A DNA stretch of 39,375 bases, taken from the sequence record MZ234024.1, one strand, 5' to 3'. The position numbers and the translations under genes are program-made. This DNA comes from Escherichia phage vB_EcoP-101136BS1. The notes beneath the pieces were generated by a model. The model did no database searches. It was not told the origin of the DNA and saw only the letters and a list, made by a program, of their open reading frames with translations. This document shows, piece after piece, positions 5,693 to 24,607 of the stretch (position 1 is the stretch's first letter; each line of letters opens with the position of its first letter).

Positions 5693-5887
5693 ATGATTGA
5701 GTTAGACTTCAAGAATGAGGTCCTCAAAGCCTCGCCTATCGTCGGGACCGCTGCGGCTGATGGTGCCAGTCGGTTCTTCTTTGGGCTAACGCTCAACGAA
5801 TGGTTCTACGTCGCTGCTATCGCGTACACCGTGGTGCAGATTGGCGTCCTAATTTACAAGACGATTAAGAGCGGAGGTAAGACATGA
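5693..5887 (+). CDS. gp17.5: class II holin (gp17.5)
   Basis: 64 aa; near-identical block to T7 holin as recalled (FFGLTLNEWFYVAAIAYTVVQIG). Confidence 0.9.
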   Translation: MIELDFKNEVLKASPIVGTAAADGASRFFFGLTLNEWFYVAAIAYTVVQIGVLIYKTIKSGGKT

Positions 5888-6147
5888 CGCAGATGGACTT
5901 AGAGAAGTTCCTGTTAATGCTGGACACAGAACGTGCTAGACTAATGCTGCAAGACCTGCGGGATGACTCTAAGCGTTCGCCCCAGCTCTACAACGCCATT
6001 GAGAAGCTACTGGCTCGTCACAACTTCGTGCTAAGCAAGGTGTCTGTTGACGAGAAGACGCTCGCTGATATGGAGGCCCTGAACGCAGAGTACGATAAGG
6101 TGCTCTCCGCTACGGAAGATAATGACACTGGGTATGGAGTGCAGTAA
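5884..6147 (+). CDS. gp18: terminase small subunit (gp18)
   Basis: 87 aa; shares LMLDT and RSPQLYNAI with T7 gp18; start overlaps the holin stop. Confidence 0.85.
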   Translation: MTQMDLEKFLLMLDTERARLMLQDLRDDSKRSPQLYNAIEKLLARHNFVLSKVSVDEKTLADMEALNAEYDKVLSATEDNDTGYGVQ

Positions 6148-6160
6148 ATCTCTTAAGTGT

Positions 6161-6205
6161 TAGACTCAAGGTCATTACTGTGTGTAGTGGCCTTTATGGT
6201 TAACA
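6161..6205 (+). promoter_or_regulatory. conserved intergenic element GACTCAAGGTCAT...GTGGCCTTTATGGTTA, candidate RNase III site (T7 R18.5 position)
   Basis: Same motif recurs at 15320-15362 and 22385-22430, and in part at 11997-12012. AAGGTC and GGCCTT can pair with one G-U wobble. Confidence 0.45.
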
Positions 6206-6257
6206 CTAACTAGTGGAGGAGACTCTACGTGAAATCTGATAAACCGGGAGGGCAACT

Positions 6258-6707
6258 ATGCTCGAATTTTTAAAGAGAGCGGCTCCGTGGTTACTTGCAG
6301 CAGTGATGTTTGCTGGTGGCTACCGCACCGCTAACAATAAGTGGGAGGCTAAGGTCAATGCAGAATACACCTCGAATCTTAAGGCATCGGAAGATACAAG
6401 GCTTGCTGTCCAAGCTGAAGTCAACAAAGTGTCCAAACGGTTTCAGGACGAAATGTCCTCGCTGGAAGGCAGCACTGATAGGATTATTGCTGACCTTCAG
6501 TCTGACAATAAGCGGTTGCGCATCCGAGTCAAACCAACGAGTGGAACCACGCAAAGTGACGGTCGATGCTTCATTGATGGTTACGCCGAACTTGACGAAC
6601 GAGATGCTAAACGTCTTATCGCCATCGGAGTGAAAGGAGACAAGTGGATTAAGGCCCTTCAAGACACTGTGAGAGCCTTACAGCAAGAGAAGGAGGTGAC
6701 GCATTGA
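6258..6707 (+). CDS. gp18.5: Rz-like i-spanin (gp18.5)
   Basis: 149 aa; N-terminal membrane anchor; matches T7 gp18.5 ([29 protein letters not shown]). Confidence 0.85.
6358..6633 (+). CDS. gp18.7: Rz1-like o-spanin lipoprotein (gp18.7) embedded in the +1 frame of Rz
   Basis: Matches T7 gp18.7 ([18 protein letters not shown] lipobox, [10 protein letters not shown]). Start is uncertain; the open frame begins at 6310. Confidence 0.7.
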   Translation: MQNTPRILRHRKIQGLLSKLKSTKCPNGFRTKCPRWKAALIGLLLTFSLTISGCASESNQRVEPRKVTVDASLMVTPNLTNEMLNVLSPSE

Positions 6708-8999: not shown

Positions 9000-9084
9000 C
9001 TACTGTAGTCAAGGACTTTAGGTAACACCTTAAGAGAAGCTCACTTAGGGTCATCCTACTTATTGGTCTATCCTAGTGTCGCCT

Positions 9085-9126
9085 GACCTACGGTCCTTGA
9101 CCTACAGTGGCTGTGGCCTACAGTAG
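9085..9126. repeat. short direct repeats of (G)ACCTAC(A/G)GT, 3 copies
   Basis: GACCTACGGTC, GACCTACAGTG and GCCTACAGTAG within 42 nt; analogous to the CCTAAAG-type arrays at T7 genome ends. Confidence 0.5.
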
Positions 9127-9163
9127 TGACGATGAGTTTTGGACCAAAAGTTTGAGACCACAT

Positions 9164-9346
9164 CTCACACTTCAAGAACCTCAAGTCTCCCCATAGGCCC
9201 TCTTTAAGTCCAGACCAAAGGCCCTACCCCAGTCTATCATAAGGTTAGACCGATGGTCCAGACTTCAGGTCAACGATAGGTCTAGGCTATGGCTTAGGGA
9301 AGGACGATAGGTTGGGACTATGGGTCTTCTTTGAGTCTCTATCTGT
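9164..9346. repeat. candidate terminal-repeat region with the genome left end near TCTCACA (9164)
   Basis: TCTCACA followed ~29 nt later by CCCCATAGG, and ending near CTATCTGT, mirrors landmarks of the T7 160-bp terminal repeat as recalled. Boundaries cannot be fixed from a collapsed assembly. Confidence 0.3.
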
Positions 9347-9480
9347 ATAACCATAAGTCACAACCATAGGTCACAGCCTACCTCTCACAACCATAAGTCA
9401 TAACCTACAGTCTCACTAACCTACAGTCTCAACCATAAGACACCAACACCTACAGTCATAGACCTACAGTTAATAGACAC
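9335..9480. repeat. array of short direct repeats (ACCTACAGTC x4, ACCATAAG(T/A)C x3) in the left-end non-coding region
   Basis: Repeats read directly at 9403, 9417, 9447 and 9461, and 9351, 9379 and 9431. Confidence 0.6.
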
Positions 9481-9580
9481 AGGCTATAGACTTAAGGTCT
9501 AAGACATGTTAGTCAAAGACTATATCCTCTTACACCATGGGGCCGACGATAGCTTAATCAATATTATTTCAAATTACCTA

Positions 9581-9610
9581 TTGACTATAGGTCCAGACTA
9601 TGGCCTAATA
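9581..9610 (+). promoter_or_regulatory. candidate host sigma70 early promoter (T7 A1 position)
   Basis: TTGACT at 9581-9586 as in the T7 A1 -35; the -10 is weak (CCTAAT at 17-nt spacing). Downstream ACACGACACGG...AACCGGATA aligns with sequence after T7 A1. Confidence 0.4.
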
Positions 9611-9720
9611 GCTTCCGTCAACACGACACGGCAACAACCGGATAGTGAAGACGCCGGTCCGGTCCGGTTAAGTAGTCAGCCTGTAAGACATACGAACAAC
9701 AGGCAACCGACAGAAAGTAG

Positions 9721-9750
9721 TTGACAGGCAGTAACGACTTAAAGTAATAT
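9721..9750 (+). promoter_or_regulatory. candidate host sigma70 early promoter (T7 A3-like): TTGACA, 18 nt, TAATAT
   Basis: Consensus -35 and near-consensus -10, followed by GTACCACATCGAAAC, which matches the T7 A3 transcribed region. Confidence 0.65.
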
Positions 9751-9804
9751 GTACCACATCGAAACAACGGTGATGACCAACACTGAATGGTCTACCTGAA
9801 GTCC

Positions 9805-9850
9805 TCTGACTGAAGGGAATGCTCTTTAACAATCTGGATAAACTCTTAAT
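9805..9850 (+). promoter_or_regulatory. leader segment matching the T7 R0.3 RNase III site region (GCTCTTTAACAATCTGG)
   Basis: 17-nt identity with the T7 early leader sequence as recalled. Confidence 0.45.
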
Positions 9851-9863
9851 GTGCGCCGATAGC

Positions 9864-9920
9864 GACTAACTACAGGGCCTTTGAGTCTACATCTGAAGGC
9901 CCTGACTGATAGTCACTAAC
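9864..9920 (+). repeat. repeated structured element, copy 1 (ACTAACTACAGG ... GGCCCTGACTGATAGTCACTAAC); candidate RNase III site
   Basis: Contains hairpin AGGGCC-N18-GGCCCT. The 22-nt core recurs at 10216-10237 and 10944-10965, each ~30-45 nt upstream of an early start codon. Confidence 0.5.
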
Positions 9921-9936
9921 TTAAAGGATGGACACT

Positions 9937-10182
9937 ATGAAACACTTAAGCACAATCACTAATCGCAATGAAGTATTCGTGAACACTAAAGGTTATGCGT
10001 GGATTCAGCTTAAAGAGATGACAGGAGCGCGTCACCGTGTGGTAGTGCGCAAGGTATCAAGCAAGCAGTTCAGCAACTACAGCGTCGATACTGTGCGTAT
10101 AGACAACGAGACATACCTGATAGACTCGCAGATAACCGTGAGTCCTACAGTGGGCGTCTCAGCTCCTTATTTCGCTAACTGA
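9937..10182 (+). CDS. hypothetical early protein, 81 aa (first cistron after the host promoters)
   Basis: ORF-track frame 9928..10182; the second ATG at 9937 has better RBS spacing (AAAGGA, 8 nt). No similarity recognised. Confidence 0.55.
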   Translation: MKHLSTITNRNEVFVNTKGYAWIQLKEMTGARHRVVVRKVSSKQFSNYSVDTVRIDNETYLIDSQITVSPTVGVSAPYFAN

Positions 10183-10184
10183 GA

Positions 10185-10240
10185 GTGATTAACTACAGGT
10201 CGTTAGACTGATAGCGGCCTGACTGATAGTCACTAACACA
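10185..10240 (+). repeat. repeated structured element, copy 2; candidate RNase III site
   Basis: TTAACTACAGG can pair with CCTG(ACUGA)UAGU as an 8-bp stem with a bulge; core GGCCTGACTGATAGTCACTAAC. Confidence 0.5.
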
Positions 10241-10265
10241 TAATTAACTTTGAGAGGATATAACT

Positions 10266-10772
10266 ATGGAACGTAATGCTAACGCATACTATGAGCTGCT
10301 GGCTGCAACCGTTGAGGCATTTATCGAGCGTATTCAGTACGACCACCTGACTCAAGATGACGACTACAGCGATGCGCTGCATGAGGTCGTAGACGGTCAG
10401 GTTCCTCACTATTACCACGAGATTTTTACGGTGATGGCTGCTGATGGTATAGACAACGAGTTCGAAGACTCTGGGATGATACCTGAAACCAAGGACGTAA
10501 CGCGTATCCTACAAGCTCGCATCTATGAGGCACTTTATAACGACGTGTCTAATAGCTTGGATGTAGTCTGGTTTGAGGATGAAGAGGCAGACGAAGAGGA
10601 TGAATATTGGGTAGTTGACGCTAAAACAGGCGCAATAATTGTGCAAGCTGTAGCTCTTGAGGTCGCTACTGCATGTGCCAAGGTTAACTATGCGGCAGGT
10701 CGCCACCTGAAGGTGGAAGACACCAATGATAACGTAGTGTTCGACCCTGCGGCTGAGGACTGCGAGCGATGA
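10266..10772 (+). CDS. ocr: Ocr-like anti-restriction DNA-mimic protein (gene 0.3) with a ~50-aa C-terminal extension
   Basis: [45 protein letters not shown] is near-identical to T7 Ocr as recalled. T7 Ocr is 117 aa; this ORF is 168 aa, continuing past the acidic tail. Confidence 0.85.
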
Positions 10773-10914
10773 TAACTTACGGTTTATGCCAGCACCACGT
10801 CACCAACGCCCGGCTTATGGTCAAGACCGGGCAGTTAGACCACGATTGGGCTATGCGTCTCTTGAAAGTGGTCTACAGGAGACGCAAGCGTATACACGAC
10901 AGTTTACACGCTAA

Positions 10915-10968
10915 GTGACAGACTACAGGTCATCAATGCTGGTGGCCTGACTGATAGTCATTAACAAC
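10915..10968 (+). repeat. repeated structured element, copy 3; candidate RNase III site
   Basis: AGACTACAGG ... GGCCTGACTGATAGTCATTAAC upstream of the 10982 start. Confidence 0.5.
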
Positions 10969-10981
10969 TGAGAGGGAAGAT

Positions 10982-11209
10982 ATGAACACAATCACTGGTG
11001 CCATAACCAAAGGTTTTCGAGCAATTTTCGGTGAAACGCAAGAAGTATGCACCAATCATAAATTCGTACTTTCTTGCGTAGCAGGTGACGAGTTTGACGG
11101 GTTCGATAAACTGGTGGTTTGCGACCATTGCGGACAAGAGGCTATCCAACACTCAAACGGTAAATTTGAATTAATAGACGATAGCCTTACAGAAGGAGAC
11201 GGCGAGTAA
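10982..11209 (+). CDS. hypothetical early protein, 75 aa, Cys-containing and acidic
   Basis: RBS GAGGGA; contains VCTNH and VVCDHCGQE, a possible small metal-binding fold. No homolog recognised. Confidence 0.55.
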   Translation: MNTITGAITKGFRAIFGETQEVCTNHKFVLSCVAGDEFDGFDKLVVCDHCGQEAIQHSNGKFELIDDSLTEGDGE

Positions 11210-11341
11210 CCTAAATAAACAGGAGAGAACCAAATCATAGCTTGACCATAACACTGACGTGATGGTACTGAGTGATAGACGAGAGGTCATCGACTGATAG
11301 GTGGCCTCAAAGATTACCACTTACATTGATAGGAGTTAACT

Positions 11342-11446
11342 ATGAGCACTGCAATCATCTGGACTATCTCAGGCTTCGTAGCGTGGGGAATGTTTACTCT
11401 AGTCTGCAAACTACCGGTCCTTACTCAACTGTTATGGGGCTTATGA
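11342..11446 (+). CDS. possible small hydrophobic peptide, 34 aa
   Basis: AGGAG RBS 6 nt upstream; MSTAIIWTISGFVAWGMFTLVCKLPVLTQLLWGL; stop overlaps the next ATG (ATGA). Too short to score. Confidence 0.3.
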   Translation: MSTAIIWTISGFVAWGMFTLVCKLPVLTQLLWGL

Positions 11447-11646
11447 CTATGAGTATCGCACTATTGATAGCCATAGGCTATGGACTTATCGCCTACGTGC
11501 TGGTGAGAGACATCAACAAAGCGCGTAAAGTCTACAAATTCAACTATGTACGTCTGGGTAGCTGGACTGTACGTCAACCTAACGGACGATTCATGCGTAA
11601 CTTAGCGAACGTCTGGGATATAGCAACACTTGGGAGCAAACTGTAA
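11443..11646 (+). CDS. hypothetical early membrane protein, 67 aa
   Basis: In-frame part of ORF 11272..11646. The 11272 start lies inside a repeated structured element, so the ATG at 11443 is preferred. One predicted transmembrane segment. Confidence 0.45.
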   Translation: MTMSIALLIAIGYGLIAYVLVRDINKARKVYKFNYVRLGSWTVRQPNGRFMRNLANVWDIATLGSKL

Positions 11647-11972
11647 TGAACAAGTCATACGGGATTAATCTGGTACACTCTATGGACGCAGACATGCAAA
11701 TGTTAAGCCTACTGGCTACCGGGTATCGTCACGGAACGTCAAGTCACTCCGCACGTCAACAGCAGGAGCGGGACCGGGTACTGCAAGCAAGACTCCGGGC
11801 TGAGGGCCATAAGTCCGAACTAATGTGTCTGGCGTATGGTGGACGACCAATCACTGACGATGGTAAACTTTTAGTCTCAGGCTGGAAGGCGATAGACCAA
11901 CGGTCAACCATCAAGCACACGACTCATGGTGACTTCAGTCATCTCCACGCTAACCCGCTGATATGCAAGTAA
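11646..11972 (+). CDS. hypothetical early protein, 108 aa, in the slot where T7 carries gene 0.7
   Basis: ORF with ATG overlapping the upstream stop. No kinase motifs and too short for a gp0.7 kinase. Confidence 0.5.
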   Translation: MNKSYGINLVHSMDADMQMLSLLATGYRHGTSSHSARQQQERDRVLQARLRAEGHKSELMCLAYGGRPITDDGKLLVSGWKAIDQRSTIKHTTHGDFSHLHANPLICK

Positions 11973-11978
11973 TTCTGA

Positions 11979-12001
11979 CTTAACTATCACTATAGGACTC
12001 A
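11979..12001 (+). promoter_or_regulatory. phage RNAP promoter immediately upstream of the RNAP gene (TTAACTATCACTATAGGACTC)
   Basis: Matches the window consensus with a GGA start, ~75 nt upstream of the gene 1 ATG. Confidence 0.7.
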
Positions 12002-12069
12002 AGGTCTAAGACTCCAAGTGAAAGACCAAAGAGACTTTAAGTGAAAGACTAATAACAAGGACTTTAAGT

Positions 12070-14751
12070 ATGAGCGTCATCTCTATTGACAAGCACGACT
12101 TCTCTGATGTGTCGAACGCCATTGAGCCGTTTAACCTACTGGCTGACCACTACGGGCAAGACCTTGCAGTCAAACAGCTTCAGCTTGAGCACGAGGCATA
12201 CACTGAAGGCGAGCGACGTTTCATCAAGAACCTTGAGAGACAGACTGAGCGAGGGGAACTGGCAGACAATCAGGTCGCCAAGCCTTTGATGCAGACTCTA
12301 GTCCCTAAGATTGCGCAAGCCGTCAAGGAGTGGCATGAAGGTCCAGACGGGAAGCTGTCAACCTCTCGTCCGAGCGTAGCGTTCACCATGTTGAGCACTG
12401 AAGAGAAGGCCGTAAAGGTCCGCTCTTTGCGCATCTCCTGCGAGTCTGCTGCGGTTATCATACTGAAGGTCATACTCTCCAAGCTGGTCAAGCCTGAAGG
12501 GATACCGATTACACCGATGGCCTCAGCGATAGGTCGCACACTTGAGGACGAAATCCGCTTCGGTCGCATCCGTGACAAGGAGAAAGAGCACTTCAAGAAG
12601 GCGATAGCTGATAACCTGAATAAGCGGGCCGGGGCGTCCTACAAGAAAGCCTACATGCAAGCGGTCGAGGCATCCATGCTGGAGCAAGGCCAACTGGAAG
12701 ATGCGTGGGGGACTTGGAGTCCGACCGAGGCTGTCCACGTTGGAATCAAGATGCTGGAGATTGTCATCCAGTCCACACAACTGGTCGAGCTTAAGCGTTA
12801 CGGTGCTGGCAATGCAGCGGCTGACGTTGAGATGGTCCACCTGTCAGACTTCTGGGTCAAGAAGATGGCACAACGAGGATTCAGCCTTGCGGGTATAGCT
12901 CCAGTCTACCAGCCTTGCGTCGTTCCACCTAAGCCGTGGACTGGTGTCGTAGGCGGTGGGTACTGGGCCAAAGGACGCAGACCATTACCACTGATTCGCT
13001 TAGGGTCTAAGTCTGCGGTAGCACGCTACGAAGACGTGTATATGCCTGAAGTCTATGACGCTGTGAACATCATTCAGAATACACCTTGGAAAGTGAACAA
13101 GAAGGTTCTGGAAGTGGTGAACATGGTCGAGAAGCTGAACAACACGCCTATTGATGACATCCCTCAGATGGAACCGCTGAAGCCTGAGGACTATGCGGGT
13201 GAGACTGAAGAAGAACTCAAGGCATGGAAGAAGGCTGCTGCTGGTATCTATCGCCGCGAGAAGGCCAGACAGTCACGAAGATTGTCACTGAGCTTTATCG
13301 TCAACCAAGCGAACAAGTTCTCTCAGTTCAAGGCCATCTGGTTCCCGTATAACATGGACTGGCGCGGTCGCGTCTACGCTGTGCCGATGTTCAACCCTCA
13401 GGGTAACGACATGCAAAAGGGTCTTCTGACTCTGGCAGTCGGTAAGCCTATTGGTGCTGATGGTTTCAAATGGCTGAAGGTCCACGGTGCAAACTGCGCG
13501 GGTGTCGATAAAGTCACCTTCGAGGAGCGTATCAAGTGGGTGGAAGATAACCACGACAACATCATGGCTGCTGCCAAGGCACCGATGGATAGCATTGAGT
13601 GGTGGGGCAAGTTAGACTCTCCGTTCTGCTTCCTAGCGTTCTGCTTCGAGTATGCTGGCGCAATGCACCACGGCTTGTCTTACTCCTGCTCGCTGCCGAT
13701 AGCGTTCGATGGGTCCTGCTCTGGGATTCAGCACTTCAGCGCTATGCTTCGCGACCACATCGGTGGACATGCAGTAAACCTGACGCCATCCGGTAAGGTC
13801 CAAGACATCTACCGCATCGTGTCTGACCGCATTGAGGAGGAGCTTAAAGTCCTACTGGTTAACGGTACGGACAACGAGATGGTAACTCACGAGGACAAGA
13901 AAACTGGTGAGATTACCGAGCGTCTCAAGCTGGGGACACGAGAGCTTGCCCGTCAGTGGCTGACCTACGGTATGTCACGAAAGGTCACTAAGCGTTCGGT
14001 CATGACTCTGGCCTACGGGTCGAAAGAGTACGGCTTCGCAGACCAAGTTTACGAGGACATCGTGATGCCAGCGATTGACTCAGGGTCTGGCGCTATGTTC
14101 ACTGAACCAAGCCAAGCATCTCGCTTCATGGCTAAGATGATTTGGGAAGCTGTGAGTGTGACCGTAGTTGCTGCGGTTGACGCGATGAAATGGCTTCAGG
14201 GTGCTGCCAAGCTGCTTGCTGCTGAAGTGAAGGACAAGAAGACTGGAGAAATCCTGAAGCCTTGTCTTCCGGTACACTGGGTCACACCTGATGGTTTCCC
14301 TGTCTGGCAGGAATACCGCAAGAAGGACACCACTCGTCTGAACCTGATGTTCTTAGGGTCATTCAACCTTCAGCCTACCGTCAACAAAGGCACGAAGAAA
14401 GAGCTGGACAAGCACAAGCAGGAGTCAGGCATTAGCCCGAACTTCGTCCACTCACAAGATGGTAGCCACCTGCGGAAGACTGTAGTCCACACTCACCGCA
14501 AGTATGGCGTGATGTCATTCGCAGTGATTCACGATAGCTTCGGGACCATCCCTGCTGACGCTGAGTATCTGTTCCGTGGTGTCCGTGAGACGATGGTCGA
14601 GACATACCGCGATAACGATGTGCTGCTTGACTTCTACGAGCAGTTTGAATACCAGCTTCATGAAAGCCAGCGCGACAAGTTGCCTGAGCTTCCGAAGAAA
14701 GGTAAACTGAATATCGAAGACATCTTGTCTTCAGACTTTGCATTCGCTTAA
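12070..14751 (+). CDS. gp1: single-subunit DNA-directed RNA polymerase (gene 1)
   Basis: 893 aa (T7 RNAP is 883); conserved C-terminus ...HDSFGTIPADA...DFAFA and specificity-loop region TRLNLMFLGSFNLQPT (T7: TRLNLMFLGQFRLQPT). Confidence 0.97.
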   Translation: MSVISIDKHDFSDVSNAIEPFNLLADHYGQDLAVKQLQLEHEAYTEGERRFIKNLERQTERGELADNQVAKPLMQTLVPKIAQAVKEWHEGPDGKLSTSRPSVAFTMLSTEEKAVKVRSLRISCESAAVIILKVILSKLVKPEGIPITPMASAIGRTLEDEIRFGRIRDKEKEHFKKAIADNLNKRAGASYKKAYMQAVEASMLEQGQLEDAWGTWSPTEAVHVGIKMLEIVIQSTQLVELKRYGAGNAAADVEMVHLSDFWVKKMAQRGFSLAGIAPVYQPCVVPPKPWTGVVGGGYWAKGRRPLPLIRLGSKSAVARYEDVYMPEVYDAVNIIQNTPWKVNKKVLEVVNMVEKLNNTPIDDIPQMEPLKPEDYAGETEEELKAWKKAAAGIYRREKARQSRRLSLSFIVNQANKFSQFKAIWFPYNMDWRGRVYAVPMFNPQGNDMQKGLLTLAVGKPIGADGFKWLKVHGANCAGVDKVTFEERIKWVEDNHDNIMAAAKAPMDSIEWWGKLDSPFCFLAFCFEYAGAMHHGLSYSCSLPIAFDGSCSGIQHFSAMLRDHIGGHAVNLTPSGKVQDIYRIVSDRIEEELKVLLVNGTDNEMVTHEDKKTGEITERLKLGTRELARQWLTYGMSRKVTKRSVMTLAYGSKEYGFADQVYEDIVMPAIDSGSGAMFTEPSQASRFMAKMIWEAVSVTVVAAVDAMKWLQGAAKLLAAEVKDKKTGEILKPCLPVHWVTPDGFPVWQEYRKKDTTRLNLMFLGSFNLQPTVNKGTKKELDKHKQESGISPNFVHSQDGSHLRKTVVHTHRKYGVMSFAVIHDSFGTIPADAEYLFRGVRETMVETYRDNDVLLDFYEQFEYQLHESQRDKLPELPKKGKLNIEDILSSDFAFA

Positions 14752-15223: not shown

Positions 15224-15298
15224 CAGACATACAGTTACTGGCCCTGTGGCTGGGAGCACTCGCAGTATTCACTTTAATCCAACGCAGAAGAGGTTAAC

Positions 15299-15321
15299 CC
15301 TAAACTATCACTATAGGATTA
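15299..15321 (+). promoter_or_regulatory. phage RNAP promoter (phi1.1 position)
   Basis: CCTAAACTATCACTATAGGATTA. Confidence 0.8.
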
Positions 15322-15362
15322 GACTCAAGGTCATGACTCAAAGTCGTGGCCTTCATGATTAA
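15320..15362 (+). promoter_or_regulatory. conserved element AGACTCAAGGTCAT...GTGGCCTTCATGATTA, candidate RNase III site (R1.1 position)
   Basis: Second copy of the 6161 motif, directly downstream of a promoter. Confidence 0.45.
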
Positions 15363-15394
15363 CCCTAAATAAACACTACTGGAGATTTAACCGT

Positions 15395-15574
15395 ATGTAT
15401 CAGAACACTATCAACTTCGAGCGCATCCGTGAACGTCAGCAGACTGAAGGTTACATCCCGAAGGGCCGCAAGCTGAACAAGACCAAGCGTGGCGGGGGTA
15501 TCAAAGGCGCTTTCAGAAACGCTGAAGGTAAAGACTCTCTGGTCAACCAAGAGAAATACTTCGTAGGAGCATAA
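15395..15574 (+). CDS. gp1.1: gp1.1-like small basic protein, 59 aa
   Basis: KGRKLNKTKR matches T7 gp1.1 as recalled; below the ORF-track size cutoff. Confidence 0.6.
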   Translation: MYQNTINFERIRERQQTEGYIPKGRKLNKTKRGGGIKGAFRNAEGKDSLVNQEKYFVGA

Positions 15575-20491: not shown

Positions 20492-22195
<1,704 letters not shown>

Positions 22196-22206
22196 GGAGG
22201 AGTACA

Positions 22207-22371
22207 TTGCTAAGAAAACTTAAAGCTCGCTACCATCGGTTCATGTACAAATGGTGGAGCGACGAAGCAACCTGCCTGTCGAACATTCTGGGAGACCAGC
22301 GGTTCAACTCTGAGGCATGGAAGAAAGCTAACCGGAAGTTCATGTATCACTTCTTGCGTACAGACTTCTAG
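22207..22371 (+). CDS. hypothetical small basic protein (gene 4.3/4.5 region)
   Basis: ORF-track 22174..22371 overlaps gp4; a TTG at 22207 follows AGGAGG by 5 nt. Start is uncertain. Confidence 0.35.
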   Translation: MLRKLKARYHRFMYKWWSDEATCLSNILGDQRFNSEAWKKANRKFMYHFLRTDF

Positions 22372-22384
22372 GTCTAGACTCAAG

Positions 22385-22430
22385 GTCATTCATAGCGAGT
22401 GGCCTTTATGATTAGACTAAAGCGGAGGAT
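22385..22430 (+). promoter_or_regulatory. conserved element TAGACTCAAGGTCAT...GTGGCCTTTATGATTA, candidate RNase III site upstream of the DNA polymerase gene
   Basis: Third copy of the 6161 motif. Confidence 0.45.
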
Positions 22431-22435
22431 TAACC

Positions 22436-24607
22436 ATGTTTGACCTTAAGAGTATCTGGGGTTCTGACATCGAGACCAACGGTCTCCTTGATACAGTCTC
22501 CCAGTTTCACTGTGGGGTCCTGATTAACGCCGAGTCGAATGAGACCCTTAAGTATGGGGTAGCTCCGATGGTCGGTATCGTCGGCGGCTTCAAAGAGTAT
22601 GTTCATAAAGTGGAAGAGATTGCCGCATCACCTGATGGTATGCTGGTATTCCATAACGGTATCAACTATGACGTCCCGGCTATAGACAAGCTGAAGCGTT
22701 TGTACTTTGGGAAACGCTTTAACTTCCCGAAACATAAGATGATTGATACCTTGGTGCTGGGACGCTTGATGTATCCAAACATTAAGTTCTCAGACATGGG
22801 CGCGGTAAAAGCTGGTCGTCTGCCACCTAAGATGATGGGACGCCAGTCTCTTGAGGCTTGGGGCTATCGTCTCGGTGAGATGAAAGGTGAGTACAAACAC
22901 GATTACGTTGCCAAGTGCAAGGCTGAAGGTATCGAATATAAGGCTGGGGACGAATGGTTGTTCCCGTCTCAGGAGATGCTGGACTATAACGTTCAAGACG
23001 TTGTGGTCACACTGGCGTTGTTCAAGAAGTTCCTGACTGACAAGTATTACTTCCAGTCTGAACAGTTCGCTTTCGACCAGATTTATGCGTTGCGTCTGGA
23101 ACATGATGCTGCGTGGACCTGTGCGAAGATGGAGTGTAACGGCTATCCGATGAACACCGAGATGGTCGAAGGCTTATATCGTGAACTCACTGTCAAACGT
23201 GCAGAGTTGCTGGACAAGCTGCGTTCGACTTTCGGTAGCTGGTACGCACCAAAGGGAGGCAAGGAGTTCTTCAGGCATCCACGGACAGGTAAGGACCTTC
23301 CGAAGTATCCGAGGGTCGTGTATCCTAAGGTCGGTGGCATCTTTAAGAAGCCGAAGAACAAAGCTCAACGCTTAGGTCTTGAACCTTGTGAACGCGATAC
23401 GCGAGACACGATGGAAGGAGCACCATTCACGCCAATCACTTACGTTGAGTTTAATCCGGGAAGCGGAGACCACTTAGCGAAAGTCCTGATGGAGCGTGGC
23501 TGGGAGCCTGTTGACTTCACTGACACCGGGAAACCTGTAGTCGATGACGAGACGTTGGAACACGTTAAGTTACCAGACGCAGAGGCTCAGGCTTGCGTAG
23601 AGCTGGTCCGTGAGTATCTGGTAGTCCAGAAGCGCATCGGTCAGGCTGCTGAAGGTAAGAACGCATGGTTGAAACTTGTAGGTCCAGACGGACGTATGCA
23701 CGGCTCAATAAACCCATGCGGGGCAGTAACCGGACGTGCGACCCATAGTTCACCAAACATGGCTCAGGTCCCGGCTAACGGTGCTCCATATGGTGAGACT
23801 TGCCGTGGTGCTTTCGGTGCAGCGTGGAACAAGAAGGACGGTAAGCCAGACCCTTGGATTCAAGTTGGTGTGGATGCCTCAGGTCTTGAGCTTCGTTGTC
23901 TTGGGAACAGAGCGGCTACGTTTGATGGTGGTGCATATGCGAAGACTGTGGTAGAAGGTGACATCCACTGGGCCAACGCAGTAAACGCTGGGTTAGCACC
24001 TAACGTCCAACGCGATAAGTCTAACCACGACCATGAGGCTTTCCGTAACAACGCTAAGACGTTCATCTACGCGTTCCTGTATGGTGCAGGGGCCGCTAAG
24101 ATTGGACTGATAGTAGGCGGTGGTAAGAAGGAAGGTTCAGCGCTAATGAAGAAATTCATTGAGGGTACACCAGCTATCAAGGACCTCAGGGAAGCTGTAA
24201 GTAATACGTTAATCTCAGACTCTAAGTGGGTGGACGGAGAGAACATCGTTAAATGGAAACGTCGCTGGCTGAAAGGTCTGGATGGTCGTCGTATTCACAT
24301 CCGGTCTCCACACTCAGCACTTAACGCCCTACTTCAGGGGGACGGTGCGGTTGTCTGTAAGCACTGGATGGTACTGACTGAGAAGAAACTTGAAGAGGCT
24401 GGTTACGGTAACGGATGGGACGGCGACTTTGCGCTAATGGCTTGGATTCACGATGAATTGCAGATAGCGTGCCGTACTCAGGAGATAGCAGAAGATGTCG
24501 TCCGTATTGCTCAAGAGGCGATGCGCGAGGTCGGACGCTTCTATAACTTCAAGTGTGAACTTGATACGGAGGGTAAGATTGGACCAACGTGGAAAGAGTG
24601 TCATTGA
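22436..24607 (+). CDS. gp5: DNA polymerase (gp5), family A with 3'-5' exonuclease
   Basis: 723 aa; exonuclease motif DIETNGL, polymerase motifs NFKCELDTEGKIGPTWKECH, KTFIYAFLYGAG, HDELQ. Confidence 0.95.
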   Translation: MFDLKSIWGSDIETNGLLDTVSQFHCGVLINAESNETLKYGVAPMVGIVGGFKEYVHKVEEIAASPDGMLVFHNGINYDVPAIDKLKRLYFGKRFNFPKHKMIDTLVLGRLMYPNIKFSDMGAVKAGRLPPKMMGRQSLEAWGYRLGEMKGEYKHDYVAKCKAEGIEYKAGDEWLFPSQEMLDYNVQDVVVTLALFKKFLTDKYYFQSEQFAFDQIYALRLEHDAAWTCAKMECNGYPMNTEMVEGLYRELTVKRAELLDKLRSTFGSWYAPKGGKEFFRHPRTGKDLPKYPRVVYPKVGGIFKKPKNKAQRLGLEPCERDTRDTMEGAPFTPITYVEFNPGSGDHLAKVLMERGWEPVDFTDTGKPVVDDETLEHVKLPDAEAQACVELVREYLVVQKRIGQAAEGKNAWLKLVGPDGRMHGSINPCGAVTGRATHSSPNMAQVPANGAPYGETCRGAFGAAWNKKDGKPDPWIQVGVDASGLELRCLGNRAATFDGGAYAKTVVEGDIHWANAVNAGLAPNVQRDKSNHDHEAFRNNAKTFIYAFLYGAGAAKIGLIVGGGKKEGSALMKKFIEGTPAIKDLREAVSNTLISDSKWVDGENIVKWKRRWLKGLDGRRIHIRSPHSALNALLQGDGAVVCKHWMVLTEKKLEEAGYGNGWDGDFALMAWIHDELQIACRTQEIAEDVVRIAQEAMREVGRFYNFKCELDTEGKIGPTWKECH

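Follow-up and report, generated by a model that had tools for sequence, protein, structure and literature searches.

What are the short repeats that stand upstream of successive early genes in MZ234024.1, a circularly permuted K1F-like (Kayfunavirus) genome with 99% identity to Escherichia phage LM33_P1? We analysed all 39,375 bases of the record (the window) and found a 19-nt core, CTGACTGATAGTCAYTAAC, exactly repeated on the + strand at 9902-9920, 10219-10237 and 10947-10965, where 0.02 exact matches would be expected by chance; none of 100 shuffled sequences contained four core matches at three or fewer mismatches. An initial sequence-only reading had placed core copies at 9898-9920, 10216-10237 and 10944-10965; these coordinates are correct and the repeat is real. 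What it described as a partial fourth copy near 11291 was mis-registered. The nine letters at 11292-11300 (GACTGATAG) fall within the apical loop of a complete fourth hairpin of 33.6 bits, where 11303-11322 (GGCCTCAAAGATTACCACTT) corresponds to the core by homology. Thus, there are four complete elements, which we call Ra, Rb, Rc and Rd, all on the + strand between an early promoter and the RNA polymerase gene (Table 1).

The early promoter, a strong one of the host sigma-70 type, would drive a transcript that carries Ra to Rd, and gene 1 closes the region that holds them. Ra lies in the leader before a gene for 81 or 84 aa (start at 9937 or 9928), and Rb directly follows a stop codon (10180-10182), upstream of the ocr-like gene. 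The lower stem of Rc contains the stop codon (10916-10918) of the 49-aa ORF and has the 75-aa gene downstream, whereas Rd, which has a variant 3' loop, is upstream of ORFs at 11342, 11443 and 11646 and of gene 1. In all four cases the predicted cut is 29-41 nt before the next start codon, and these start codons have Shine-Dalgarno sequences. PHROG families could be assigned to six of the seven early-cistron proteins. The sequence-only reading had contrasted this locus with T7 as having one copy per gene, but four elements serve seven small cistrons, after which the transcript continues into gene 1, and the ORFs starting at 10769, 11443 and 11646, as well as gene 1 (12070), have no element directly upstream. 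The contrast fails because several genes here have no site of their own and because T7 and its relatives carry similar numbers of sites.

Table 1 Features of the early region and RNase III-type elements in MZ234024.1 (arrow or slash, predicted cut; bits and E, covariance model built from T7 and T3 sites)
Feature	Position	Strand	Basis or description
Host sigma-70-type early promoter, TTGACA-18-TAATAT	9721-9750	+	10/12 consensus match
Ra	9860-9918	+	32.8 bits, E 2.3e-5; fold -25.6 kcal/mol, z -4.5
Ra predicted single cut, CCUGACU↓GAU	9907/9908	+	cut register
Early cistrons between sites	9937-11972	+	81-aa gene; ocr-like gene and 49-aa ORF; 75-aa gene; 34-aa, 67-aa and 108-aa ORFs
Rb	10183-10235	+	38.9 bits, E 7e-7; fold -23.8 kcal/mol, z -3.9
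Rb predicted cut, CCUGACU↓GAU	10224/10225	+	
ocr-like gene	10266-10772	+	
Rc	10913-10963	+	36.9 bits, E 2.3e-6; fold -19.3 kcal/mol
Rc predicted cut, CCUGACU↓GAU	10952/10953	+	
75-aa gene	10982-11209	+	
Rd	11270-11322	+	33.6 bits, E 1.4e-5; fold -19.8 kcal/mol, z -2.4
Rd predicted cut, CCUCAAA↓GAU	11311/11312	+	
Gene 1, single-subunit RNA polymerase, 893 aa	12070-14751	+	ORF; annotated RNA polymerase in relatives
R1.1 equivalent, CCUUCAU↓GAU	15314-15367	+	46.3 bits; predicted cut 15356/15357
R4.7 equivalent, CCUUUAU↓GAU	22369-22419	+	49.6 bits; predicted cut 22409/22410
R18.5 equivalent, canonical	6155-6208	+	51.1 bits; predicted cut 6197/6198

The sequence-only reading had likened the repeats to RNase III sites and proposed folding each unit as a check. 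The minimum free energy folds of Ra to Rd (z-scores of -1.9 to -4.5) each have 9 bp in the lower stem and 9-12 bp in the upper stem, with a 4x5 internal loop between the two, which is the plan of the T7 and T3 sites. That reading had also paired ACTA(A)CTACAGG with the core. This is right for CAGG and CCTG, which form the base of the upper stem, but not for ACTA, which makes up the 5' strand of the internal loop; the lower stem arises from pairing between the core segment TAGTCACT and GAGTGAT(T/A)A upstream of it. For comparison we folded R0.3, R0.5, R1, R1.1 and R1.3 of T7, together with the T3 sites annotated as 'RNase III recognition site' in NC_003298. The T7 sites, which do not appear in the feature tables of NC_001604 or V01146, were located by fold and by cut coordinates that we take to be 890, 1468, 3138, 5887 and 6448, respectively (Dunn & Studier 1983). 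All five T7 cuts share one hairpin register, in agreement with the geometry of a 2-nt overhang (PMC1540722). Ra to Rd and the T7 and T3 sites have in common the motifs GAGUGAUA-ACU(C/A)(A/C)AGGUC...GGCCU....GAU-UAUCACU.

Because an Rfam cmscan of 9000-12500 with E up to 10 found no match to the elements, and only a chance miRNA match on the other strand, we built a covariance model (model R1) from five T7 and seven T3 sites, with no sequence from the window. A search of all 39,375 bases on both strands with filters off gave seven matches of 32.8-51.1 bits, all on the + strand, and the next match scored 13.5 bits (E 1.3). Four of the seven were Ra to Rd (E 7e-7 to 2e-5), and the positions of the other three were, in gene order, those of R1.1, R4.7 and R18.5. 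In the reciprocal direction, an HMM made from the four window elements matched, on the + strand, R0.5, R1.1, R1 and R0.3 of T7 and R0.5, R0.3, R1 and R1.1 of T3, and all but one of the T7 and T3 sites outranked the best match on the - strand. G-U pairs also make most of the folds more stable on the + strand: -23.3 kcal/mol on the + strand versus -10.2 on the - strand for Rb, and -19.3 versus -9.8 for Rc. The + strand is favoured by 6.5-13 kcal/mol in every early element except Ra, which is neutral, and in every canonical site except the R1.1-type one, where the difference is only 2.6 kcal/mol.

We then compared the elements among relatives. When viral contigs were scanned for exact copies of the 14-mer CTGACTGATAGTCA, the matches lay largely at scattered positions; we took most of them as chance and used none. 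Instead, 80 related loci were collected by way of their RNA polymerase gene. All 207 model matches in the 80 loci were on the strand of gene 1. For covariation we aligned 44 distinct Kayfunavirus early elements with MAFFT on sequence only. Base pairs were present in 94.2% of pair cells, compared with 28-51% when the partner was slid, and 9 of the 19 pairs had changes on both sides. The covariation score of 0.507 (0.242 for shuffles) was reached by none of 500 shuffles. Insertions of about 30 nt in the apical part of some relatives leave the base of the hairpin intact, and Rd is kept in relatives, with compensatory changes. The matches to the covariance model and the base pairing preserved in the 44 homologues both support the RNase III reading. 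The GAU just 3' of the predicted cut was invariant in 46 sequences. By contrast with the T7/T3 consensus UUAUGAU, the 3' loop of the early elements reads GACUGAU or CAAAGAU, and among the 80 loci sampled this was found only in Kayfunavirus-type genomes. The highest number of sites upstream of gene 1 was five, in a relative of T7.

The three canonical sites resemble Ra to Rd in fold and strand, but they score higher (46-51 bits) and, unlike Ra to Rd, retain the T7-type loop CCUU(U/C)AU↓G(A/G)U. The R1.1-type site is 3' of gene 1 and upstream of small ORFs at 15395 and 15579, and it overlaps at its 5' end with a phage promoter, CACTATAGG (15309-15317). Another lies between a 566-aa ORF (20495-22195) with the short ORFs that follow it and a 723-aa ORF (22436-24607); from their size and order we read these as gene 4 (primase/helicase) followed by gene 5 (DNA polymerase), and the site between them as the equivalent of R4.7. 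Similarly, the third lies between ORFs of 87 aa (5884-6147) and 149 aa (6258-6707), taken on the same grounds to be genes 18 and 18.5, and is thus the R18.5 equivalent. The four early sites form a separate subfamily, closer to one another than to these canonical sites. Before gene 1, the covariance model had no match in 11323-12069, and the fold of 11975-12070 was not significant (z -1.2); a phage promoter stands directly upstream of the gene instead.

Would the early elements suit the enzyme as well as the model? The proximal and distal boxes that serve as reactivity epitopes were defined on T7 R1.1 (PMC1540722). Boxes compatible with E. coli RNase III have G-C at pb1, A-U or U-A at pb2, A-U at pb3, any pair except G-C at pb4, and U-A/U-G in the distal box (PMC1540722). 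In the early elements, pb1 is G-C and pb2 is A-U in 44 of 44 sequences. The pb4 position is a non-Watson-Crick A·A (U·C in R1.1), so that the G-C catalytic antideterminant is missing. The distal box reads U-A/U-A in Ra and U-G/U-A in Rb; Rc and Rd have U-G/C-G there, which T7 R1 also has. Counted together with pb4, the upper stem is about 11 bp long in the first three elements and 10 bp long in Rd, again as in T7 R1. One feature departs from the optimum: pb3 is C-G or G-C, whereas A-U is optimal in the minimal R1.1 substrate, in which pb3 substitutions weaken binding (PMC1540722). Watson-Crick substitutions in the proximal box of that substrate can lower binding or uncouple it from cleavage (PMC1540722), and the loop sequence here is non-canonical. 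One could therefore picture Ra to Rd as hairpins that are bound by RNase III, or are generally structural, but stay uncleaved and act as mRNA stabilisers or translation modulators. We consider this very improbable: the uncoupling position is pb4, which is A·A here rather than G-C; a C-G pair at pb3 occurs in the natural R1 sites of T7 and T3; and pb1 and pb2 are canonical, with pb2 and the GAU 3' of the cut invariant.

It is also conceivable that the repeats act mainly as DNA, as short homologous joints through which early-gene cassettes are shuffled, in which case the RNA fold would be incidental. In comparisons with 21 relatives, 34% of blast HSP ends fell within 15 nt of the elements (11% expected), and 13 of 44 distinct breakpoint clusters were at elements (p 7e-4), although the excess of HSP ends comes partly from cross-matches between paralogous elements and from a conserved-island effect. 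Six relatives lack the 81-aa gene and one element, and in them the sequence to the left of Ra passes, within the shared core, into the sequence to the right of Rb. Copies within a genome are more alike than orthologues, and two copies in one relative are near-identical. However, compensatory changes and G-U pairs show selection on the structure of the + strand RNA, every model match lies on the transcribed strand, and the elements have proven RNase III substrates among their homologues, which together make a mainly DNA-level function very improbable. Least probable of all, to the point that we give it almost no weight, is that the elements are transcription signals, that is, intrinsic terminators or attenuators, or promoters for the RNA polymerase of the host or the phage. 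In favour of this, the hairpins are rich in G+C and intergenic, and some T7 and T3 RNase III sites overlap promoters; yet there was no terminator-like site in 9100-12100, because the stems have no U-run after them, no sigma-70-like match within the elements, and none of the nine copies of the phage promoter consensus, cT(a/t)AACTATCACTATAGG, within Ra to Rd. Terminator and promoter identities for Ra to Rd were rejected on these grounds.

These results strongly suggest that Ra to Rd are the early-region RNase III processing signals of this K1F-like relative of T7, homologous to R0.3, R0.5, R1 and the other sites of T7 and T3. The homology extends over sequence and structure, strand, position and covariation; from it we infer cleavage, the exact position of the cut, and effects on stability and translation. 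The early precursor of T7, of about 7000 nt, has five signals on which E. coli RNase III acts (PMC3867540), and with internal loops only one strand is cut, so that a hairpin stays on the 3' end as a stabiliser (PMC3867540; PMC1540722). In the phage studied here, host RNA polymerase would start at the early promoter or promoters near 9721-9750 and make one long transcript toward gene 1, in which each lower stem, internal loop and upper stem would fold co-transcriptionally. Host RNase III would bind the quasi-continuous helix of about two turns and cut the 3' strand only, 2 nt past the first loop position, because the internal loop distorts the helix. The predicted cuts (Table 1) would divide the precursor into a leader and four mRNAs, encoding the 81-aa gene, ocr and orf49, orf75, and orf34-orf67-orf108, the last of which probably runs on into gene 1. 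The hairpin would stay at the 3' end of each upstream product and protect it from 3' exonucleases, and each downstream product would start with GAUAGUCACUAAC or GAUUACCACUUAC at 29-41 nt upstream of its start codon. T7 itself can grow when RNase III is missing (PMC6938266), and the contribution of the sites to fitness may therefore be small. Our search of the literature on K1F and Kayfunavirus for transcriptome, RNA-end or RNase III data found none. A gene for a 0.7-type kinase is apparently missing from the early ORFs of MZ234024.1; this phage may therefore lack the stimulation of RNase III that is known in T7.

Relatives gain and lose gene cassettes, with junctions within the shared core. 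We regard recombination at the elements as a side effect or an additional role of the RNase III sites rather than as a competing explanation. The junctions in the core of six relatives, the three-fold enrichment of breakpoints and the similarity of copies within genomes raise the possibility, which we put forward tentatively and at less than even likelihood, that the near-identical cores (19-23 nt, CCUGACUGAUAGUCACUAAC) also serve as portable cassette boundaries. If so, homologous recombination among copies, whether in the same genome or in Kayfunaviruses that infect a cell together, would add, remove and exchange early anti-host genes together with one processing site, and every gene acquired in this way would bring a 3' stabiliser for its mRNA and a processed 5' leader of standard form. 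Cassette junctions in the sites hint at the way in which T7-like phages exchange early anti-defence genes. Short conserved intergenic elements that bound variable early cassettes, with mosaic junctions inside, recall the promoter-early stem-loops (PeSLs) of T4-type phages. PeSLs, proposed mediators of gene shuffling, are promoter-associated DNA or RNA hairpins rather than RNase III substrates. The likeness is one of analogy only, with no relationship in sequence or structure to Ra to Rd.

Each element is, then, most probably an ordinary T7-like RNase III mRNA-processing hairpin with a genus-specific loop, a known feature that is unannotated in database records, and Ra to Rd leave the picture of RNase III processing in T7-like phages unchanged. 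Their practical value is in annotation: knowing where the sites lie would delimit the real early mRNAs, and anything inserted into the early region should leave the sites intact. K1F-like phages are in use for phage therapy and engineering. The loop variants GACU↓GAU and CAAA↓GAU also provide natural tests of how far E. coli RNase III tolerates changes in the internal loop.

The T7 sites precede genes 0.3, 0.5, 1, 1.1 and 1.3, and like them Ra to Rd are intercistronic and on the same strand, and their hairpins have 9 bp in the lower stem, a central C/G in the 4x5 internal loop, and (A/C)AGGUC...GGCCU(U/G) at the start of the upper stem. The predicted single cut is in the same register, at the third nucleotide after the last upper-stem pair, and the cuts at T7 R0.3, R0.5, R1 and R1.3 are 26-34 nt before start codons, compared with 29-41 nt here. 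Rb occupies the same position as R0.3 of T7 and T3, before ocr, whereas the genes beside Ra, Rc and Rd have no counterparts in T7. The lower stem GAGUGAUA...UUAUCACUU of T3 R0.5 and R4.7 is common to the window elements, and T3 R1 shares CAGGUCAUC...GGUGGCCUG with Rc. Sites R0.3 to R18.5 of T3 are annotated in NC_003298, whereas the records of K1F and LM33_P1 have no such features. By contrast, the 3' loop is UUAU↓GAU in T7 and GACU↓GAU or CAAA↓GAU in the early sites here, a difference that holds for T3 as well, and the closing pair of the upper stem is C-G or G-C here, whereas in T7 only R1 has such a pair. T7 has three sites before gene 1, where this phage has four, and the place that R1 takes before gene 1 in T7 is occupied here by a phage promoter without a site.

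The 2.6 kb surrounding the four hairpin units is 99.2% identical to Escherichia phage LM33_P1 of the genus Kayfunavirus, in the K1F-like branch of the T7 subfamily Studiervirinae, and 242 phage records match this region. The window is circularly permuted with respect to the genome, whose left end lies at about position 9146. All four units belong to the early region, with a sigma-70-type promoter on one side of them and gene 1 on the other (see table). Unit 1 lies in the leader 5' of an 81/84-aa gene; unit 2 begins directly after the stop codon of that gene and is followed by an ocr-like gene; unit 3 includes the stop codon of a 49-aa ORF, with a 75-aa gene downstream; and unit 4 lies upstream of three small ORFs reaching to gene 1. 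The sequence-only reading of one copy per gene therefore does not hold: there are four elements for seven small cistrons, after which the transcript runs on into gene 1. None of the early ORFs scanned against PHROGs matched a kinase family, so the phage, in a further difference from T7, seems to have no 0.7-type kinase. The ocr-like protein (10266-10772) has 168 aa, of which the PHROG ocr profile spans only residues 1-142, and within its gene eight HSP ends from blast comparisons with relatives fall together at 10587-10601, suggesting from sequence that its C-terminal part is mosaic or exchangeable. The stretch 9080-9480, close to the left end of the genome and 5' of the early promoters, holds dense short direct-repeat arrays (ACCTACAGT, AACCATAAGTCAC, GATAGGTCnnGnCTATGG); in T7, repeat arrays adjoin the terminal repeat, and the two may be comparable.

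Consistent with the positions first read, the 19-nt core CTGACTGATAGTCAYTAAC has exact copies at 9902, 10219 and 10947, all on the + strand, where 0.02 matches are expected. The fourth copy, taken to be partial, does exist but is a complete element: the GACTGATAG seen near 11291 lies in the apical loop of a fourth hairpin, and its core-homologous segment is GGCCTCAAAGATTACCACTT (11303-11322). Each unit folded into a lower stem of 9 bp (GAGUGAUUA/UAGUCACU) and an upper stem of 9-12 bp that begins with CAGG/CCUG, separated by an internal loop with ACUA (4 nt) on its 5' side and ACUGA (5 nt) on its 3' side. Fold energies were -19.3 to -25.6 kcal/mol (z from -1.9 to -4.5 relative to dinucleotide shuffles), and in three of the four units the + strand folded better than the - strand by 6.5-13 kcal/mol because of G-U pairs. 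In sites 1-3 the 9-mer GACTGATAG makes up the 3' loop and the first part of the lower stem. Further copies stand in the apical loop of site 2 (10206-10214), variable among homologues of that site (GACTCATAG, GAATCATAG), and in that of site 4 (11292-11300), where homologues conserve it. Upstream-gene stop codons lie at the edge of or within the lower-stem 5' strand (10180-10192, 10913-10921), where the motif GAGUGAUAG/AAGUGACAG carries UGA and UAG, the same arrangement as at T7 gene 0.4/R0.5 (T7 1427-1436), and the lower stem would be melted by a ribosome that terminates at such a codon.

The five T7 early sites share this fold and long motifs with the window units, as in R0.5 (GAGUGAUAGACUCAAGGUCGCUC...GAGUGGCCUUUAUGAUUAUCACU) compared with unit 2 (GAGUGAUUAACUACAGGUCGUUA...AGCGGCCUGACUGAUAGUCACU), and the T3 RefSeq record annotates ten similarly folding stem-loops as 'RNase III recognition site'. 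An alignment of 5 T7 and 7 T3 sites confirmed the two-helix structure (93.7% of cells paired; double changes in 10 of 18 pairs). A covariance model built from it, including no window sequence, was searched against both strands of the whole window with filters off and returned seven matches, all on the + strand; the next best scored 13.5 bits (E = 1.3). The top three lie at gene junctions equivalent to R18.5, R4.7 and R1.1 of T7/T3, with the canonical loop CCUU(U/C)AUG; ORFs flanking the R4.7 and R18.5 junctions were named by size and order only. Reciprocally, an HMM of the four window elements alone matched, on the + strand, R0.5, R1.1, R1 and R0.3 in T7 and R0.5, R0.3, R1 and R1.1 in T3.

Features of the window and related loci (bits, scores with the T7/T3 covariance model; L-numbers, loci around gene 1 of related phages)
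Feature	Position	Strand	Detail
Early promoter, sigma-70-type	9721-9750		TTGACA-18-TAATAT
Unit 1	9860-9918	+	32.8 bits
Unit 2	10183-10235	+	38.9 bits
Unit 3	10913-10963	+	36.9 bits
Unit 4	11270-11322	+	33.6 bits
Phage promoter consensus copy	11988-11996		CACTATAGG
Gene 1	12070-14751		ORF; single-subunit RNA polymerase, 893 aa
R1.1 junction	15314-15367	+	46.3 bits
R4.7 junction	22369-22419	+	49.6 bits
R18.5 junction	6155-6208	+	51.1 bits
Junction interval, L137	1360-1480
Junction interval, L139	2020-2140
Junction interval, L129	2070-2190
First early site, L143	788-868		~30-nt apical extension
First early site, L136	730-810		~30-nt apical extension
First early site, L144	835-916		~30-nt apical extension
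First early site, L134	821-902		~30-nt apical extension
First early site, L145	716-797		~30-nt apical extension

Across 80 viral-contig loci surrounding gene 1 (RNA polymerase identity 58-99%), the T7/T3 model found 207 sites, all on the gene-1 strand. In some T7-like loci gene 1 is preceded by five sites (L148); an early region with several sites is thus normal. From 22 Kayfunavirus-type loci we took 52 unique early elements, of which 46 (44 distinct rows) were aligned with MAFFT on sequence alone. Standard pairs filled 94.2% of pair cells, as against 28-51% with the partner slid by 1-3 columns; both sides change in 9 of 19 pairs, and the covariation score of 0.507 (0.242 when shuffled) was reached in none of 500 shuffles. 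In some relatives the first early site has ~30 extra nt apically and its top is predicted to branch; its lower stem, loop and upper-stem base do not change. K1F has three of the elements, which are annotated in neither the K1F nor the LM33_P1 record.

A terminator reading is excluded by the lack of a U-run after the stems and of any terminator-like site in the region, and promoter searches exclude a promoter reading. The elements might instead act purely at the DNA level, and there is real evidence for mosaic junctions at the sites: 34% of blast HSP ends fall at elements against 11% expected, a three-fold enrichment that stems partly from cross-matches between paralogous copies, and 13 of 44 breakpoint clusters lie there (p = 7e-4). 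A purely DNA-level role is nevertheless contradicted by the strand-specific covariation, and marking mosaic junctions is possibly a second role of these elements. In L137, L139, L129, L131, L134 and L145, six relatives without the 81-aa gene and without one of the sites, the flank left of site 1 joins that right of site 2 within the shared core CTGACTGATAGTCACTAAC (the counterpart of 9860-10237 in the window); L127 and L139 lack the 75-aa gene (10982-11209), with sites 3 and 4 merged. Homology, structure, covariation, strand and context support the original reading as RNase III sites: the elements are classic, unannotated T7-type processing signals with a genus-specific loop sequence.

On T7 R1.1, E. 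coli RNase III needs a helix of ~11 bp between cut and loop, a distal box of U-A/U-G and a proximal box with G-C at pb1, A-U or U-A at pb2, A-U at pb3 and no G-C at pb4; G-C blocks binding at pb2 and catalysis at pb4, where native R1.1 has a U.C mismatch (PMC1540722). Internal loops limit cutting to one strand, leaving a protective 3' hairpin (PMC1540722; PMC3867540). The minimal-substrate product is 28 nt (11 bp, tetraloop and 2-nt overhang; PMC1540722), which places the native cut 2 nt 3' of pb4, between CCUUUAU and GAU. Window units have G-C at pb1 and A.A at pb4, and pb2 is A-U in 44 of 44 homologues; pb3, C-G in units 1-3 and G-C in unit 4, is off the minimal-substrate optimum, although C-G is identical in natural T7 R1 and T3 R1. 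The GAU immediately 3' of the predicted cut is invariant (46 of 46 aligned sequences). T7 is reportedly cut at 890, 1468, 3138, 5887 and 6448 (Dunn & Studier 1983), and the T7 sequences there all show exactly this register. Carrying it over, we infer cleavage, its position and its consequences in the window: RNase III would cut at 9907/9908, 10224/10225, 10952/10953 and 11311/11312, and processed mRNAs would begin 29-41 nt upstream of start codons, compared with 26-34 nt at four of five T7 early sites. The literature searched held no RNA-end data for Kayfunavirus.

Among the loci sampled, the 3' loops CCUGACUGAU (24 copies) and CCUCAAAGAU (12 copies), which differ from the T7 loop, occur only in Kayfunavirus-type loci, in none of 58 other Studiervirinae loci and never on the opposite strand. 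Whereas T7 and T3 have R1 just upstream of gene 1, the window has no RNase III site directly there but a full phage RNA polymerase promoter consensus, ttaactatCACTATAGG (+1 at ~11995; 11975-12069), which would let the polymerase transcribe its own gene. After it come ACTCAAGGTC, which resembles a site's 5' half, and repeats of AAGTGAAAGAC; 11975-12069 has no significant fold (z = -1.2). Within 15293-15367, another phage promoter, CACTATAGG at 15309-15317 (+1 at ~15316), overlaps the 5' end of the R1.1-type site (15314-15367), an overlap shared by T7 phi1.1A/R1.1 and T3 phi1.1/R1.1; transcripts starting at this promoter would miss the first two lower-stem bases. The differences from T7 are variations inside a known family and not a new kind of element.
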